A stretch of DNA of 64,000 nt, taken from sequence record PP430346. One strand, given 5' to 3'. The DNA comes from Escherichia phage vB_EcoM-LTH02. This document shows, piece after piece, positions 21,717-63,772 of this stretch; positions within the stretch are counted from its first letter, which is position 1, and every line of letters starts with the position of its first letter. Made by a program: the position numbers and the translations under genes. The notes beneath the pieces are model-generated. The model saw only the letters and a list, made by a program, of their open reading frames with translations, was not told the DNA's origin and did no database searches.

Positions 21717-21723
21717 AGTTTAA

Positions 21724-21749
21724 GGCTCCTTTTTACGGGAGCCTTTTTT
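21724..21749 (+). terminator. Rho-independent terminator closing the late/structural operon
   Basis: GGCTCC-TTTTTAC-GGGAGCC followed by TTTTTTGTTTT. Confidence 0.55.
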
Positions 21750-21752
21750 GTT

Positions 21753-22652
21753 TTATTTACCTACTGACAAAGGTGCTTCAATCTTTCCTGCATGTTGGTA
21801 ATTGTTAATACCACCGATAAAGTCACTTGCAGTGAGATGTTTTAAGTCACTTAAAGTGTTAAGCTGTAAACCAATCTCAAAAGTCGGTGCATGAAACTCT
21901 TCATTGTTCATCAGTTCATAAACCTGCTTCATATGATTCTGATAAATCTGAGTATCTCCAAAAACACCTATCAAGTACCGTGGAGTGTATCCAGTCATCT
22001 TACAAAGAACTTCCAGAATAAATCCATAAGATGCAATATTAAACGGAAGTCCTAAAAAGGTGTCTACAGAACGCTGATACCATTGTAAGTCAACTTCACC
22101 CTCGTTAGTGATATAAATCTGAAACAGAACATGACAAGGTGCTAGAGCCATTGAGTTTGCTGCAATATCTGCTGCATTCCAAGCATTAACAAGCATGTAA
22201 CGGTCTGTGATATCACCCTTCATCTTCGTTACTAAGGTCTCTAACTGGTCTACAACACAGCCGTTATGACCTTCAAAGTTTCTCCACTGAACCCCATAAA
22301 TCCTTCCACCTGCATCTTCTAACCAATCTTGCTCAGAAGAGTAATTAGAGCTTAACCAGCGTTTAAAATCATCTGACCAGATTGTCCAACGTTCACCATC
22401 ATTTTCACCCCAAGTACGGTAACGGAGTTCACCAAGCTTATTCTCACCGTTCAGGAACCATAAAGCTTCCCCAATAACTTGCCGTGTAAACACCTGTTTA
22501 GATGTTAAGAGAGGGAAACCAGTTCGCATATCAAAACGAAACTGAGGTGGAGCAAATGCAGAGATAACATCTCCAGTTCGTGTAGTACGCAGTTCACCAA
22601 CTGATAAAACATGGTTCAGGATATTTTTGTAACTTGAATCTGCTTGTGACAT
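21753..22652 (-). CDS. thyA: Thymidylate synthase
   Basis: Contains the catalytic PCH motif (LAPCHVLFQ) and DMRTGFPLLTSK folate/dUMP-binding region typical of ThyA. Confidence 0.85.
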   Translation of the reverse strand: MSQADSSYKNILNHVLSVGELRTTRTGDVISAFAPPQFRFDMRTGFPLLTSKQVFTRQVIGEALWFLNGENKLGELRYRTWGENDGERWTIWSDDFKRWLSSNYSSEQDWLEDAGGRIYGVQWRNFEGHNGCVVDQLETLVTKMKGDITDRYMLVNAWNAADIAANSMALAPCHVLFQIYITNEGEVDLQWYQRSVDTFLGLPFNIASYGFILEVLCKMTGYTPRYLIGVFGDTQIYQNHMKQVYELMNNEEFHAPTFEIGLQLNTLSDLKHLTASDFIGGINNYQHAGKIEAPLSVGK

Positions 22653-22653
22653 A

Positions 22654-23199
22654 TCAAAAGTGTCCTTTTACTTGTGGAACATAAATTTCAAAAGTTGCTT
22701 TACCATCCTCTGATGGTTTTGATTGTACCTTTGTAAATACACGGTTATCATACAGCTTCTCAAAGAAGTTTTCAAAAGGTAAATGCACAGTGGCCTCTTC
22801 AGTAACTTTATGGAAAACTGTATGGAACACCACACCAGCATACGGTAAAGCATTGACAAGGACACCTGCACCACCAATTACAAAGACATCTTCATCAATA
22901 GAGCTATCAAGATACTTCAAAAATGCTCCAAATGAATCTTTACTGGCTTTAGCATACATTACATCATCTTTGCCAAAGTCTATACCTAAGTATGGTACAG
23001 AATTTGTTAAGATGAGGTTTGCACGTTCTGGTAAAGGTTTACTACCCAGAGTCTTAAAAGTCTCATTACCCATCACTACTAAGTTATTTTTAGTGAGTCT
23101 CTTAAACTCTTGCATATCCTGTTTATGTCGAGGCCACGGCATACCAGTTGGAGTACCAAACTCACCATTTTCACCACTTGCAAAGATTAATTTAATCAT
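22654..23199 (-). CDS. frd: Dihydrofolate reductase
   Basis: N-terminus MIKLIFASGENGEFG...GMPW and internal VIGGAGVLVNALPYA match the DHFR fold signature; sits directly upstream of thyA as in T4-type td-frd pairs. Confidence 0.75.
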   Translation of the reverse strand: MIKLIFASGENGEFGTPTGMPWPRHKQDMQEFKRLTKNNLVVMGNETFKTLGSKPLPERANLILTNSVPYLGIDFGKDDVMYAKASKDSFGAFLKYLDSSIDEDVFVIGGAGVLVNALPYAGVVFHTVFHKVTEEATVHLPFENFFEKLYDNRVFTKVQSKPSEDGKATFEIYVPQVKGHF

Positions 23200-23456
23200 T
23201 TTGTAAACCCTCTCTTAATGAACCAGTTGATAACAGTCTTCACAGCTTTATTGCTATGATAGATTAAGTGTGGTGTAGGTTGGTATGAACCATAAGCCCA
23301 GAATGATAGGTGCTCACCACAACCAACACATGTAGTACTCTCTTCAGCTATATGACCATTAACAATCATATGAACTTCACCTTGTAAGTCTGTACATCCA
23401 CAATGTGGACAACGAATGGGTGTTCCATCAGACTCATAGCAGTGTTCAATTTTCAT
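23196..23456 (-). CDS. Zinc-ribbon protein
   Basis: CPHCGC...CVGCGEH pairs of CxxC; start overlaps DHFR stop. Confidence 0.4.
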   Translation of the reverse strand: MKIEHCYESDGTPIRCPHCGCTDLQGEVHMIVNGHIAEESTTCVGCGEHLSFWAYGSYQPTPHLIYHSNKAVKTVINWFIKRGFTK

Positions 23457-23972
23457 TTATTTAACCTCAAAAACTGGTTCAAGAACCAATATAAAGTCTA
23501 CACAGTCATCTTCTTCATCCAGAATACCATCAAAGTTCTTAGGAACGAAGTCGAAGAGGCTCATAACAAAGCAGTCAGAAGTAACTCTAATAGTGCCTCC
23601 CATATTCTCTACAGTCAACACTGTACGACTTTCTTTTACCTCTCTCAGAAGATTACTCACAAAGTCATCTAAGAAGTACTTCATCAGTGACTTAAAACCT
23701 TTAGGGTAATCTGTACCAGAGTATGTTTCAATCTGAGGTACAAGCTTAACATTTATACTAGTCTTTGCTAAGAACGTGCTAGAGAACATACTATCAGGTA
23801 ACTTGCAAACAGTCTTTCCAGTGCCTTCATGCTCAATCTCAACAAAACCAGCTTCATCACCACACGTAACTATTTTAAAAGATGCTTCATTCTCATACTG
23901 TGAAGCCATGAACTTTTTAAGCATCACTTTAAGGAAATCTGCATGAGCATCTTGTAAGTAGATATCAATCAT
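23457..23972 (-). CDS. Hypothetical protein
   Basis: 171-aa ORF in a tightly packed minus-strand early-type block. Confidence 0.4.
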   Translation of the reverse strand: MIDIYLQDAHADFLKVMLKKFMASQYENEASFKIVTCGDEAGFVEIEHEGTGKTVCKLPDSMFSSTFLAKTSINVKLVPQIETYSGTDYPKGFKSLMKYFLDDFVSNLLREVKESRTVLTVENMGGTIRVTSDCFVMSLFDFVPKNFDGILDEEDDCVDFILVLEPVFEVK

Positions 23973-23985
23973 AATTCATCACCTA

Positions 23986-24345
23986 TTATGGGAACAGACA
24001 CTTGATGTCATCATTTTTGAAAACAAAGCTTGTGTAGTTGTGACCGTCAACATCCAACCAAACAGCCTGAACATCTACACCATCAAGATTCTGGTAAAGC
24101 TCTTTGATGAAGTGGTCTTTCACAATCTGACTGCTAGTTGTTTCCAGCTTAATGTTTGAGATTGCTGAACCTACAGCCATATAACCCATGACGCGTTTCT
24201 TCTCAGTATGCTTAATCTTACCATCTTTGTAGGCCATAATGAGATTGGAAAGAATCTTCACACCATAATACTTTTCAAGGTGAGTTGGTACACCATAAAA
24301 GCCTAATGCGAAGTTTTCAGAGTGGATAATGTTTTCACGTTTCAT
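23986..24345 (-). CDS. Hypothetical protein
   Basis: 119-aa ORF, same block. Confidence 0.4.
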   Translation of the reverse strand: MKRENIIHSENFALGFYGVPTHLEKYYGVKILSNLIMAYKDGKIKHTEKKRVMGYMAVGSAISNIKLETTSSQIVKDHFIKELYQNLDGVDVQAVWLDVDGHNYTSFVFKNDDIKCLFP

Positions 24346-24346
24346 A

Positions 24347-24676
24347 TTAATCTGCCAACCTTAAATTAAAATTAACACCAAATTTTTCACATACTTCCAA
24401 CATAAACTCAAGAGAGACATTACCAGTGAGGTTGATTATGTTGGATACACGAGCCTGAGAGATACCACAAATTTTAGCAACTTGCTCTTGAGAAAGACCT
24501 CTGGATTTAATCTCTCTCTTAAAACGATGTGCAACGAAGTCTCTCATTTCGTCTACATCCATTGGACAAATATAACTCTCCATTTCAGCCTCTCTGTCAG
24601 CCTCCCAATCATCTTGTGGAGCATAAGGGTCAAAAACCTCATTCATCTTTCTTCTTCCGTTTTCGTGAAGTGTCAA
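24347..24676 (-). CDS. HTH (XRE/Cro-C1 type) DNA-binding protein; possible alternative start at 24646
   Basis: LSQEQVAKICGISQARVSNIINLTGNVSLEFMLEVCEKFGVNFNL is a classic helix-turn-helix XRE signature. Confidence 0.55.
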   Translation of the reverse strand: MTLHENGRRKMNEVFDPYAPQDDWEADREAEMESYICPMDVDEMRDFVAHRFKREIKSRGLSQEQVAKICGISQARVSNIINLTGNVSLEFMLEVCEKFGVNFNLRLAD

Positions 24677-24851
24677 TCAATGAATCTATGTTTGTAGCCC
24701 TAACCTTTTCACGTTCATCGTTAAGATAATCATCAAGAGCCTTTTCAATCTGTGAATCATCTTGACAGATAACTGTAAAGACTGTAAAGCCGTCTGTATC
24801 GTCAATTATCTTACCATAACCGCTTCTGGGATGTAACTTTTTAAGAGCCAT
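24639..24851 (-). CDS. Small protein partner upstream of the HTH gene
   Basis: 70-aa ORF overlapping the start of the HTH gene on the same strand. Confidence 0.35.
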   Translation of the reverse strand: MALKKLHPRSGYGKIIDDTDGFTVFTVICQDDSQIEKALDDYLNDEREKVRATNIDSLIDTSRKRKKKDE

Positions 24852-24852
24852 A

Positions 24853-25236
24853 TCAAATACCTGTGCAGCTTCTGTTTTCTAAGAAATACTCAACACCATA
24901 CATAGCTTTTTGCATCAAATCTTCTTTAAACTGAATACGATGATTGAGCATAGCCTGTACATCAATATCATCAGGGTGCTTCTCTTTAATATTTGCAGAT
25001 TGCAGGAAATACTCTGCAAGAACACGATACTGATAGTCAGTTACCTTATCAGTCATCTCTGTTAAAGACTCTTCAGAGATTGGTTTAAGTAACTCACCAT
25101 TAGCTAGAGCAACACCTTTAACAATCTGGCAAGTATCTTCTGGAACACCTGATAAGTCCACATTTGGAAGTTCTGTTGCATTGACTGGTAAATTCATTGC
25201 CATAACCATTGCAGCAGCTAATAAAATCTTTTTCAT
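24853..25236 (-). CDS. Secreted/periplasmic protein with Sec signal peptide
   Basis: N-terminus MKKILLAAAMVMAMNLPVNA-TE has the n/h/c-region layout of a signal peptide with an AxA-type cleavage site. Confidence 0.45.
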   Translation of the reverse strand: MKKILLAAAMVMAMNLPVNATELPNVDLSGVPEDTCQIVKGVALANGELLKPISEESLTEMTDKVTDYQYRVLAEYFLQSANIKEKHPDDIDVQAMLNHRIQFKEDLMQKAMYGVEYFLENRSCTGI

Positions 25237-25280
25237 AATGACCTCAAAGTTATATTAAATTTTGTATTACGTTGAGTATA

Positions 25281-25309
25281 AAAATAAGCTATAACACCTG
25301 ACTTGTCAA
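25281..25309 (-). promoter_or_regulatory. Candidate sigma70-like promoter for gene 24853-25236
   Basis: On the minus strand TTGACA (25309-25304), 17-nt spacer, TATTTT (25286-25281). Confidence 0.3.
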
Positions 25310-25327
25310 CAGATTTTATAGCTTATT

Positions 25328-25374
25328 TTGGCAGATTTTTTTATAAGGCTACTGCCATCCTTCCATACATTACC
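25328..25374. repeat. Conserved 47-bp block X, copy 1
   Basis: TTGGCAGATTTTTTTATAAGGCTACTGCCATCCTTCCATACATTACC; identical to 26863-26909; contains inverted repeat TGGCAG/CTGCCA. Confidence 0.7.
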
Positions 25375-25576
25375 TTACCACACCCTACCATACCTAACCA
25401 AACTACACCATACAATACCTTGTTAAAAGACCTTGTTTAAATGCCTTTTAAAAAGGTAAGTCTCATTTTAATGTAGCTGAGACTAACTACCCATACATTA
25501 CCTTACCATACCAGACCTCACCCTACCTTAACTTACCTTACTCTATCCTACCAAACACCACTTAAAAACCCTCTTA
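25355..25576. repeat. G-free CA/T-rich tracts of degenerate TACC-like units (island 1)
   Basis: Plus strand has no G at 25355-25421 and only one G (25514) across 25482-25576; built of TACC(A/T)-like units. Confidence 0.65.
25423..25492 (-). terminator. Conserved module Y copy 1: minus-strand intrinsic terminator with conserved downstream leader
   Basis: On the minus strand, hairpin GGUA..AGUCUCA-loop-UGAGACUUACC followed by UUUUU; 70-bp block differs from copy at 26968-27037 at 2 positions. Confidence 0.5.
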
Positions 25577-25594
25577 GAAGACTCTTAAGTGATG
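25559..25594. repeat. Conserved block Z copy 1 (CACTTAA...TTAAGTG inverted repeat)
   Basis: CACTTAAAAACCCTCTTAGAAGACTCTTAAGTGATG; repeated with one indel at 27144-27180; followed by a second hairpin with loop TTTTTATGTAGC. Confidence 0.55.
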
Positions 25595-25697
25595 TAATCG
25601 GATTTTTATGTAGCTCCGATTAACTACCCATACCAAGCCTAACCTGACCGCACCAAACTTTACAACACCACACCATACCTGACCATACCAAACCTCA

Positions 25698-25749
25698 TTA
25701 AAAGACCCTCTTAAAGACCTTTTAAAAAGGAGCCTCCGAAGAGGCTACC
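25698..25749 (-). terminator. Y-like module copy 3: terminator directly downstream of gene 25758-26198
   Basis: Same leader TTAAAAGACC(C)TCTTAAAGACCTTTTAAAAAGG joined to a different hairpin (GGAGCCTC-CGAA-GAGGCT); on the minus strand the hairpin is followed by UUUUU. Confidence 0.5.
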
Positions 25750-25757
25750 TAGTCAAC

Positions 25758-26198
25758 TTAGAAAGGCTTTCTACGTTGCTTGTTAATGTTAGCTTTCATA
25801 GCAGCTAAGTGGTTTTGCTGTTCAATTAGTCGTGAACGTTCTTGGTGGCTAAGTGCCATAGTGTTCACATTCTCAATCGCTTGAGTGGCTTGCTTTAAAG
25901 CACGACCAATCTTACCAGACATTTTACGTTTTGCAATAGTTGCTTGATGTTTAGGTTCAACCACACGATAACCAACACCCATTGAAGCAACCAGATAAAT
26001 CTTCTCTTCTTTAAGAAGTTTTTCAATGAACTTCTCAAGCCGGTTTAGACGTGTAAGCGCATAAGCCTTCATCTCATCTTCGTACTTAACAATGTCGCCT
26101 TGATAAGTTGGCTTCACAATACCTAAGAAGGTATCCATCTCAGAGTGTGATACAGTGTCACCGTAACTAAACTTTGCTGCTAATGCTTTTGTATTCAT
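25758..26198 (-). CDS. Hypothetical protein (cassette gene 2)
   Basis: 146-aa ORF; ATG at 26198; flanked by structured non-coding islands. Confidence 0.45.
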   Translation of the reverse strand: MNTKALAAKFSYGDTVSHSEMDTFLGIVKPTYQGDIVKYEDEMKAYALTRLNRLEKFIEKLLKEEKIYLVASMGVGYRVVEPKHQATIAKRKMSGKIGRALKQATQAIENVNTMALSHQERSRLIEQQNHLAAMKANINKQRRKPF

Positions 26199-26200
26199 AA

Positions 26201-26806
<606 letters not shown>

Positions 26807-26862
26807 TTAGTTGATTGTTAAGTTGTTTGTAAAGAACCCTCAACAGAAGACTCTTTAGAAAC

Positions 26863-26909
26863 TTGGCAGATTTTTTTATAAGGCTACTGCCATCCTTCCA
26901 TACATTACC
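26863..26909. repeat. Conserved 47-bp block X, copy 2
   Basis: Identical by eye to 25328-25374. Confidence 0.7.
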
Positions 26910-26967
26910 AAACAGTACTGTGCCACAACACACCATACCCAACCCCACCTAACTCTACCACACCTCA

Positions 26968-27037
26968 TTAAAAGACCTTGTTTAAAGACCTTTTAAAAAG
27001 GTAAGTCTCATTTTAATGTAGCTGAGACTAACTACCC
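26968..27037 (-). terminator. Conserved module Y copy 2: minus-strand terminator downstream of DNA ligase
   Basis: Same hairpin (stem AGTCTCA/TGAGACT, loop TTTTAATGTAGC) and leader as 25423-25492. Confidence 0.5.
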
Positions 27038-27143
27038 TTACCAGACCTAGCCTTGCCTTACCATACCGTACTTTACCTTACCGTACCGTACTTTACCCTA
27101 CCGTACCGGACAATACTTAACCCGACCTCGCCCTACCGGACAT
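27027..27143. repeat. G-poor TACC/CCG-rich tract (island 2) including a 20-bp tandem direct repeat at 27066-27105
   Basis: CCGTACTTTACCTTACCGTA followed by CCGTACTTTACCCTACCGTA (1 mismatch). Confidence 0.6.
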
Positions 27144-27180
27144 CACTTAAAAACCCTCTTAGAAAGACTCTTAAGTGATG
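27144..27180. repeat. Conserved block Z copy 2
   Basis: CACTTAAAAACCCTCTTAGAAAGACTCTTAAGTGATG followed by hairpin GGTGAGTAC...GTATACTCACC. Confidence 0.55.
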
Positions 27181-27245
27181 CTGGTGAGTACCCGTTGGTT
27201 TATGCTGCTCAGTATACTCACCAAATTTTCTATGTCAACAACTTT

Positions 27246-29754: not shown

Positions 29755-29815
29755 AAGCCCTCCTATATAAGATATTGTATAAGGTACTCTTCCATGAGCA
29801 CCTTGTCAATACTAA

Positions 29816-62664: not shown

Positions 62665-62871
62665 ATGATTTACAGCCGTGAATTGATGGTCACAACTAAC
62701 GTTAACACAAAGGTAAAACGTTTTTATATGCAAGTATGCGGCGCATGGCGTAGAATATCAGAATCTGACTATTGCAACTATGTAGAAACGGCTATTAATT
62801 CTAATTGCTATCTTACAAGAAACACTAAGAAATTTACAAGGCAGACAGCGATTTACTACTACGACAAATAA
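62665..62871 (+). CDS. Small protein 1 of 3' array
   Basis: 68-aa ORF with GGAGA RBS; stop codon forms the start of the downstream palindrome. Confidence 0.4.
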   Translation: MIYSRELMVTTNVNTKVKRFYMQVCGAWRRISESDYCNYVETAINSNCYLTRNTKKFTRQTAIYYYDK

Positions 62872-62957
62872 AGTACTTTACAGGGGGCTTAAAAGCTGAT
62901 ATCTTAAGCCCCAGATAAAGAGCTTTACCACTAAATCCTAAACTGGAGAACTTAAAA
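62869..62957 (+). promoter_or_regulatory. Repeated leader cassette A: palindrome TAAAGTACTTTA - GC hairpin - TAAAGAGCTTTA - RBS
   Basis: Palindrome 62869-62880; stem GGGGCTTAA/TTAAGCCCC (62884-62912); second half-palindrome 62916-62927; GGAGA then ATG at 62958. Confidence 0.6.
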
Positions 62958-63341
62958 ATGGCATACCGTGCACCTAAATTCATCAACAAAGACAACTTTC
63001 GCAACGCACTGGAGAAGTCACTTGATGAAAATTTTAAAGGTAACATTATCGTTGTTCACGCATTCAATTTTAAGTATGATGTAAACGGGAATAGAATCAA
63101 CCATTACACAGCAACCATGTTAGATGGTACGCTATCAAGTGAAAAAGCTGTACTGAATGCACTTGCAGGACGTGGTAAAAACCTGATAAGATGCGATAAG
63201 AGACGTTATCAGGGTGGCGCATATGGTTATGATGATGCTGTTTATCATCTTGAAAATATGGGCTATTCAGTGGAAAAAGCTGGAGCATCACAAATCATCG
63301 GCAGCGATGGTTATGTAACTATCTTCAAAATTAACAAATAA
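62958..63341 (+). CDS. Small protein 2 of 3' array
   Basis: 127-aa ORF between cassettes A and B. Confidence 0.45.
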   Translation: MAYRAPKFINKDNFRNALEKSLDENFKGNIIVVHAFNFKYDVNGNRINHYTATMLDGTLSSEKAVLNALAGRGKNLIRCDKRRYQGGAYGYDDAVYHLENMGYSVEKAGASQIIGSDGYVTIFKINK

Positions 63342-63426
63342 AGTACTTTACAAGGGGCTTATAGTTCGATAAAGTAAGCCCCAGATAAAGAGCTTTACCA
63401 CTAAATCCTAAATTGGAGATTCAAAA
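63339..63426 (+). promoter_or_regulatory. Repeated leader cassette B (same architecture, different hairpin loop)
   Basis: TAAAGTACTTTA 63339-63350; stem GGGGCTTA/TAAGCCCC with loop TAGTTCGATAAAG; TAAAGAGCTTTA 63386-63397; ATG 63427. Confidence 0.6.
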
Positions 63427-63684
63427 ATGGCTATTATCAAAAACGTTGTAATTACCGCAAAGACTCGTGATGACGCTCGTATCATGGCTAAAAAGTTATG
63501 CGGGAAAGTGGTTGACAACGGAAAACAATCTGCTGTAAGGTGGGGCGTGAAGGTTGATAAACAGTTAACTTTAAAACGCAGTTCAAACAACCTTTTTAAA
63601 GGTGTAAAAACACTCGGTAAAGTGAACGTGTTCACTAAACAAGGTTACAAAATGCACTTATCTTTAACTGGCAATTTAATCTGA
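63427..63684 (+). CDS. Small protein 3 of 3' array
   Basis: 85-aa ORF between cassettes B and C. Confidence 0.45.
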   Translation: MAIIKNVVITAKTRDDARIMAKKLCGKVVDNGKQSAVRWGVKVDKQLTLKRSSNNLFKGVKTLGKVNVFTKQGYKMHLSLTGNLI

Positions 63685-63772
63685 TAAAGTACTTTACAAG
63701 GGGCTTAAAAGCTGATATCTTAAGCCCCAGATAAAGAGCTTTACCACTAAATCCTAAACTGGAGATTCAAAA
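63685..63772 (+). promoter_or_regulatory. Repeated leader cassette C
   Basis: Same palindromes and a hairpin (63700-63728) identical to cassette A; ATG 63773. Confidence 0.6.

Follow-up and report, generated by a model that had tools for sequence, protein, structure and literature searches.

Several described systems combine a small gene with a gene for a small helix-turn-helix (HTH) protein of the XRE/Cro-C1 family (HTH_3, HTH_37, 2a6c), whose members have a five-helix HTH domain. In the toxin-antitoxin (TA) pairs HigB/HigA and HigB2/HigA2, the small gene comes first and the XRE-HTH gene second, their stop and start codons overlap, and order is poor at the N-terminus of the HTH protein. In Acr/Aca operons, small orphan genes are followed directly by an HTH gene and are preceded by a strong promoter with inverted repeats, and the HTH Aca proteins repress acr promoters through inverted repeats (PMC6765145, PMC9410906). 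The controller (C) proteins of restriction-modification (R-M) systems are small XRE HTH autoregulators with an overlapping partner gene upstream or downstream. In Felix O1-type phages, the temporal control of transcription is not understood, and no RNA-polymerase-modifying factors have been recognised (PMC3185647). The regulator named for the region studied here by the Felix O1-type annotations examined is ORF85, and because temporal regulation in these phages is not understood, the target of ORF85 and any modulation of it by its neighbor ORF86 are worth knowing. Felix O1-type phages, which are widely used in diagnostics and biocontrol, would benefit from such knowledge.

The window analysed here, a 64,000-nucleotide stretch of Escherichia phage vB_EcoM-LTH02 (PP430346), is by its sequence that of a Felix O1-like virulent phage of the genus Felixounavirus, and positions 23900-25400 share 97-98% identity with over 200 genomes of Felix O1-like phages (Felixounavirus, Ounavirinae). 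Its minus strand harbors homologues of Felix O1 ORF86 (70 aa, hypothetical) and ORF85 ("transcriptional regulator", pfam01381). This annotation dates to the 2010 Felix O1 genome paper, and the Felix O1 record gives the same lengths of 70 and 109 aa as the open reading frames in a preliminary description of this DNA (PMC3185647). The gene pair is already known, its observation here repeats an existing annotation, and the literature on ORF85 and ORF86 consists of annotation-level mentions only. Felix O1-like sequences that are 97-100% identical to the region also occur in MG065664 and MG065668 (Campylobacter phages A132/A126) and in GU169904 (Staphylococcus phage SA1), which is likely explained by contamination or mixed assembly.

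Both reading frames of the preliminary description exist on the minus strand, at 24639..24851 (70 aa, ATG) and, as delimited mechanically, at 24347..24676 (109 aa, TTG). They represent real genes, because relatives with as little as 54-60% identity keep the frames and the order while differing at many synonymous positions. However, the TTG start of ORF85 was rejected, since the codon at 24676 is TCG (lineage L003) or an in-frame TAG (L004, L035-L037) in relatives, whereas the ATG at 24646 and the N-terminus MNEVFDPYAPQ that follows from it are conserved. ORF85 therefore starts at this ATG and encodes 99 aa rather than 109 aa, the length annotated in its GenBank relatives with the exception of Felix O1 itself. 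As a consequence, the two genes do overlap as had been described, but by 8 nt (ATGAATGA) and not by the 38 nt that the TTG start would give. An overlap of this kind is consistent with translational coupling, and the Shine-Dalgarno-like site of ORF85, which lies inside ORF86, reads GGAAG here and GGAGG or GGAGA in relatives. In the L006/L007 lineage, the ORF86 stop codon is followed by 1 nt and then the ATG, with no overlap. A programmed +1 frameshift from ORF86 into ORF85 at AAG-AAA-G was rejected, as the site has neither a hungry codon nor a stimulator, and a frameshift fusion is also contradicted by the L006 lineage, in which the stop codon and the ATG are separate.

ORF86 and ORF85 are the second and third cistrons of an eight-gene operon comprising ORF87, ORF86, ORF85, ORF84, ORF83, ORF82, and the genes for dihydrofolate reductase (DHFR) and thymidylate synthase (TS) (Table 1). 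The pair has neither a promoter immediately ahead of it nor a terminator immediately behind it, and the stretch from ORF87 to the TS gene contains no convincing terminator-like site, with one weak match inside the DHFR gene. The sigma-70-like promoter ahead of ORF87 coincides with the place at which a promoter is annotated in AYO145A. All seven junctions of the operon fall between -8 and +13 nt, so that the overlap of ORF86 and ORF85 is the local norm, and 7 of the 13 neighboring junctions overlap in the AYO145A annotation. In RT-PCR of Felix O1, ORF83, ORF84, ORF87, and ORF88 peak at 25 min, and ORF85 and ORF86 are marked 'NT' (PMC3185647). Among relatives, ORF87 evolves fastest, with 32-35% identity compared with 54-64% for ORF86 and 60-79% for ORF85. 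The signal-peptide-like N-terminus of ORF87 reads MKKILLAAAMVMAMNLPVNA, both of its Cys residues are invariant, and its fast evolution is the pattern expected of a secreted arms-race protein, such as one for superinfection exclusion.

Table 1. Features of the ORF86-ORF85 locus and related elements, with positions in the window
Feature	Position	Strand	Basis or remark
Second AT-rich block, TATACAATATCTTATATAGGA	29761..29781	-	After TTGACA just downstream of DNA polymerase gene
49-bp inverted repeat, 20-nt arms	25281..25329	-	-35 hexamer in loop; terminator-like hairpin, then U run
Operon promoter, sigma-70-like, TTGACA-17-TATTTT	25281..25309	-	Consensus scan; TATACT just downstream
AT-rich near-palindromic block, consensus TATACAAAATTTTATATAGGA, candidate operator	25249..25268	-	Between -10 hexamer and ORF87 Shine-Dalgarno site
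ORF87 homologue, 127 aa, first operon gene	24853..25236	-	Signal-peptide-like N-terminus, two conserved Cys
ORF86 homologue, small gene, 70 aa	24639..24851	-	ORF; phrog_4473 (function unknown); AF2
Shine-Dalgarno-like site of ORF85, GGAAGAAG	24651..24658	-	Inside Arg/Lys codons of ORF86 tail
8-nt stop/start overlap, ATGAATGA	24639..24646	-	Sequence; kept in all lineages except L006/L007
ORF85 homologue, HTH regulator gene, 99 aa from ATG	24347..24646	-	Pfam, PHROG, AF2, Foldseek
HTH motif, LSQEQVAKICGISQARVSNI, residues 51-70 of ATG-started protein	24437..24496	-	Alignments
Operon downstream of the pair	21753..24345	-	ORF84 to TS gene
ORF84, 119 aa	23986-24345	-	Operon downstream of pair
ORF83, 171 aa	23457-23972	-	Operon downstream of pair
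ORF82, 86 aa	23196-23456	-	Operon downstream of pair
Dihydrofolate reductase gene	22654-23199	-	Operon downstream of pair
Thymidylate synthase gene	21753-22652	-	Last operon gene
Bidirectional terminator hairpin ending the operon	21722..21745	.	Felix O1 t79/t80 (PMC3185647 Table 2)

For ORF85, the strong XRE-family HTH recognised in the preliminary description is borne out by Pfam HTH_3 (PF01381; 43.1 bits against a cut-off of 23, E 4e-11), and the AF2 model and Foldseek agree. The protein belongs to phrog_1373, labelled 'transcriptional regulator'. Its AF2 model contains a five-helix XRE domain at residues 31-89 (pLDDT 86-91), with helices at 31-48, 53-60, 64-72, and 79-89 and a low-confidence helix at 13-23, the N-terminal ~30 residues as a whole being of low confidence. 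Foldseek matches 2a6c, HipB, C.BclI, and SinR with a probability of 1.00, in keeping with a lambda-repressor-like fold, and the best match by both sequence and structure is 2a6c (NE_1354; TM 0.74 on target, profile E 8e-5). The structural and profile neighbors, which include 2a6c, HipB, R-M controller proteins, SinR, DdrO, CapH, and Mycobacterium tuberculosis HigA2, all cover the HTH domain only. Within this domain, all ORF85 relatives keep the recognition helix ISQ.RVSNI unchanged or almost unchanged. Unlike the XRE/Cro-C1 family, ORF85 adds a 35-residue acidic N-terminal extension (net charge -10 over 35 residues, motif FDPYAPQDxWEA), for which PDB and Pfam gave no match. No other part of the protein is as well conserved, the differences in these 35 codons being 1-2 non-synonymous and 5-10 synonymous. 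Since ORF85 is an XRE-family HTH protein encoded in a virulent phage, a reasonable reading of its domain and operon context is that it is an uncharacterised XRE-family regulator, which would act by binding DNA.

The relationship of ORF85 to named regulator classes is less specific than its fold. Matches to the PADLOC 'Control_protein' models (E 2.6e-5) recall the R-M controller proteins, which ORF85 also resembles as a small XRE HTH protein with an overlapping partner gene, but its surroundings contain neither restriction nor methylase genes, and no palindrome pair resembling a C-box was identified here. An antitoxin role is suggested by HTH_37, a family rich in antitoxins whose cut-off ORF85 marginally passes (27.8 against 27 bits), by weak sub-threshold NCBIfam matches to PezA, HipB, and HigA models, and by the presence of M. 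tuberculosis HigA2 and HipB among the structural neighbors. However, the matches to these antitoxin models fall well short of the cut-offs and extend over the generic HTH alone, and the structural neighbors are equally R-M controller proteins, SinR, and DdrO.

The AF2 model of ORF86, of moderate confidence (mean pLDDT 63.6), places residues 3-43 in a beta-beta-beta-alpha core and leaves the basic C-terminal tail, VRATNIDSLIDTSRKRKKKDE, disordered. The preliminary description had proposed structure prediction as a way to find a RelE/HigB-like fold in the 70-aa protein, and the model yields no RelE match; more broadly, ORF86 has no RelE-, HigB-, ParE-, or HicA-like fold, structure, or profile match, and, its basic tail aside, no conserved catalytic-type His or Arg pattern. 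In contrast to the HicA toxin, which has a dsRBD-like fold, it has neither a HicA profile match nor the conserved catalytic His. ORF86 has no match in Pfam, PADLOC, NCBIfam, or PDB sequences, Pfam DUF406 appearing below threshold only. A profile HMMER search against 1.84 billion representative proteins recovered its own cluster and, besides this, a 2646-aa repeat adhesin (P0027), which was rejected as spurious because its 11 short matches fall in a beta-hairpin repeat, GSLIDNGDGSWTYTP. Codons 21-27 (24770-24795, minus strand), a slippage-prone short repeat within the second and third beta strands, contain a tandem duplication that varies among close relatives, where the variants DGFTVFTV, DGFTVFTVFTV, or DGFTDGFTVFTV give proteins of 70, 73, or 74 aa.

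The tail of ORF86 is invariant in homologues of 54-64% overall identity, apart from one D-to-N change in L004, and is shorter and changed in L006/L007, the most distant lineage. Compared with L002 and L003, it differs by 1 non-synonymous and 5-7 synonymous changes in 21 codons. The ORF86 tail and the ORF85 N-terminus are the most constrained parts of their proteins, opposite in charge and located one on each side of the junction. A constraint at the DNA or RNA level behind this conservation was rejected, as the rate of synonymous change is normal and Rfam gave no match. The embedded Shine-Dalgarno site of ORF85 explains part of the conservation of the basic tail, accounting for the RKRKK codons only. 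Together with the joint gain or loss of ORF87, ORF86, and ORF85 described below, the opposite charge of the constrained segments at the junction is the mildly interesting feature of the pair.

In tblastn searches, ORF86 was detected in 258 phage records and ORF85 in the same 258, in addition to two spurious Zymomonas matches. All carriers are enterobacterial Ounavirinae of the genera Felixounavirus, Suspvirus, and Mooglevirus, which share the gene order and the 8-nt overlap with most metagenomic relatives, and the order ORF87-ORF86-ORF85-ORF84 through DHFR and TS is kept in the metagenomic relatives. ORF87, ORF86, and ORF85 are absent from 18 kb of Erwinia phage Rouille (Kolesnikvirus), in which the ligase gene is followed by one unrelated gene and then by DHFR and TS, and in which the ORF84 homologue is present at another position. 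The pair also has no match in 5,426 E. coli genomes and 72,556 plasmids. With this distribution, ORF87, ORF86, and ORF85 behave as a clade-specific insert and not as a mobile TA cassette. Since the Erwinia relatives complete the lytic cycle without ORF86 and ORF85, the pair lies outside the core temporal program. Co-inheritance is no proof of a specific partnership between ORF86 and ORF85, because it is shared by the whole syntenic block.

Among the candidate DNA targets of ORF85, the AT-rich near-palindromic block is the best candidate operator, a proposal that draws on two sites in the window and on a phylogenetic profile with a single negative lineage. A regular expression for the block finds it upstream of ORF87 in 11 of the 11 other HTH-bearing loci scanned, and, alongside the invariant recognition helix, the block is present in every HTH-bearing lineage whatever its promoter type; L006/L007 have a divergent version that the expression misses, and the block is absent from 18 kb of the Erwinia phage without the HTH gene. 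Within the window, the expression gives 3 matches against 0.4 expected, one of the three inside a coding region, and the second AT-rich block downstream of the DNA polymerase gene is conserved in L002. The block might just as well be an element of the 5' UTR or of translation. The 49-bp inverted repeat, which is unique in the window and folds at -18.7 kcal/mol (z -4.7), was downgraded as an operator: it is a U-tailed hairpin, and it varies although the recognition helix is invariant. Because the L006 lineage keeps this repeat via compensatory and G-U changes, it fits an RNA or terminator hairpin that overlaps the promoter better than an operator. The repeated TAAAG-NN-CTTTA palindromes, to which the preliminary description alluded, are part of early-promoter elements of the form TAAAGTACTTTACA-hairpin-AGATAAAGAGCTTTAC; the window contains three of these elements at 62869-63743, and relatives contain four to nine or more. 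They were likewise downgraded as ORF85 targets and are independent of ORF85, because the same elements are present in 29 Erwinia phage records that lack the gene.

Collectively, the account that we favor, and consider probable on balance, is that ORF85 is an uncharacterised XRE-type regulator co-translated with a clade-restricted partner, ORF86, inside a replication and nucleotide-metabolism operon of a Felix O1-type phage. ORF86 and ORF85 are consecutive cistrons of a long sigma-70-driven operon and would be translationally coupled. Acting as a dimer, ORF85 most likely recognises a palindrome and modulates phage transcription. Its likeliest role is to repress the promoter of its own operon and one further promoter, and this repression may take place at the AT-rich near-palindrome that lies past the -10 hexamer and ahead of the ribosome-binding site. 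ORF86, an orphan restricted to the clade and produced together with ORF85, is probably its functional partner, and the conserved basic tail of ORF86 may contact the conserved acidic N-terminus of ORF85.

An alternative scenario is that ORF86 and ORF85 are functionally unrelated neighbors, with ORF85 regulating something else, such as host genes or other phage promoters, and ORF86 acting independently, so that their overlap and co-inheritance would simply follow from a compact syntenic operon. The equally tight junctions throughout the operon and the synteny of the block from ORF87 to TS in every relative fit this scenario, as does the part of the tail conservation that the embedded Shine-Dalgarno site explains. 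However, ORF86 and ORF85 have the same presence and absence in the 258 records and the Erwinia lineage, whereas ORF84 is relocated in the Erwinia phage, and the two most constrained segments flank the junction with opposite charges; we therefore regard independence of the two genes as unlikely.

Another scenario likens the locus to an Acr/Aca cassette, in which ORF86, and perhaps a secreted ORF87, would be an anti-defence or host-takeover effector and ORF85 an autorepressor damping a strong promoter after an initial burst. The layout is suggestive, as a strong promoter is followed by small fast-evolving or orphan genes and then by a conserved HTH gene, an inverted repeat and an AT-rich near-palindrome are located at the promoter, and the insert of ORF87, ORF86, and ORF85 is clade-specific and missing from Erwinia relatives. 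In contrast to Acr/Aca operons, the operon here continues past the HTH gene into five more genes of housekeeping type, including DHFR and TS, and the small protein keeps 54-64% identity and an invariant tail, a degree of conservation at odds with the rapid change typical of Acr genes. In addition, ORF85 shows no similarity to Aca structures among the PDB profile matches at E<=0.01 or the 50 Foldseek matches listed, and the 49-bp inverted repeat looks more like an RNA or terminator hairpin than a conserved operator, which leaves this scenario rather doubtful.

A further scenario, in which ORF87, ORF86, and ORF85 form a clade-specific accessory cassette and the 70-aa protein and the HTH protein make up a new two-component regulator whose DNA binding is switched by docking of the basic ORF86 tail on the acidic ORF85 N-terminus, would have the pair time part of the temporal program of Felix O1-type phages or control anti-defence or exclusion functions with ORF87 as the secreted effector; we consider this combination speculative and quite improbable.

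The preliminary description had offered either a regulator or a HigB/HigA-type TA module, and the first of these stands at the level of domain and context, whereas the second, with ORF86 as toxin and ORF85 as an antitoxin acting through its acidic disordered N-terminus in the manner of HigA2, is highly improbable, because the order of a small gene and a directly downstream HTH gene, their stop/start overlap, and the conserved low-confidence ORF85 N-terminus adjoining the conserved ORF86 tail are outweighed by HigA, HipB, and PezA model scores far below their cut-offs, the lack of a RelE-, ParE-, or HicA-like fold or profile match in ORF86, the position of the pair inside an eight-gene operon without its own promoter or terminator, and the lack, in searches of 1.84 billion representative proteins, 72,556 plasmids, and 5,426 E. 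coli genomes, of relatives in bacteria, plasmids, other mobile elements, or anywhere beyond one phage clade.

Several other elements were observed in the window. The intergenic element that precedes each small gene of the early region (62869-63760, plus strand; L008 9224-12100; L051) has the form TAAAGTACTTTACA-GGGGCTTA-N11-TAAGCCCC-AGATAAAGAGCTTTACCACTAAATCCTAAACTGGAGA and can be read as a promoter, TTTACA-17-TATCTT/TAAAGT, with a GC hairpin inside it and a 12-bp TAAAG-NN-CTTTA palindrome on either side. Its conservation extends to Mooglevirus, with at least nine copies, and to Erwinia Ounavirinae. Felix O1 ORFs 16 and 20, directly downstream of the two repeats of this kind that the Felix O1 paper describes, peak at 5 min (PMC3185647). 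A non-coding element composed of runs of GGTNN pentamers (GGTAT GGTCA GGTAT GGTGT ...) is present in two copies on the minus strand (25330-25757 and 26840-27200), one on each side of an insert of two genes (146 aa and 200 aa; 25758-26803) missing from Felix O1. Each unit ends in a hairpin whose arms differ yet remain complementary (AATCGGA/TCCGATT, AGTCTCA/TGAGACT, and TGGCAG/CTGCCA), and toward its distal end, as far as TATACT, the element hardly differs between phages with 20-35% protein-level coding divergence. These features suggest a unit that recombines or moves, or else a site related to replication. Immediately past the DNA ligase gene, a TTGACA-16/17-TATACT promoter (27170-27245, minus strand) is enclosed by an inverted repeat, with the left arm in the promoter spacer and the right arm downstream, and has counterparts in L002 (4540-4605), L003 (1110-1180), and L035. 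The arms differ completely between phages and remain complementary (GGTGAGTA/TACTCACC, CCGGTAGTT/AACTACCGG, AAACATAGCAAG/CTTGCTATGTTT, and CCTGACGGG/CCCGTCAGG), a pattern of covariation that favors a hairpin formed in read-through RNA over a site bound by protein.
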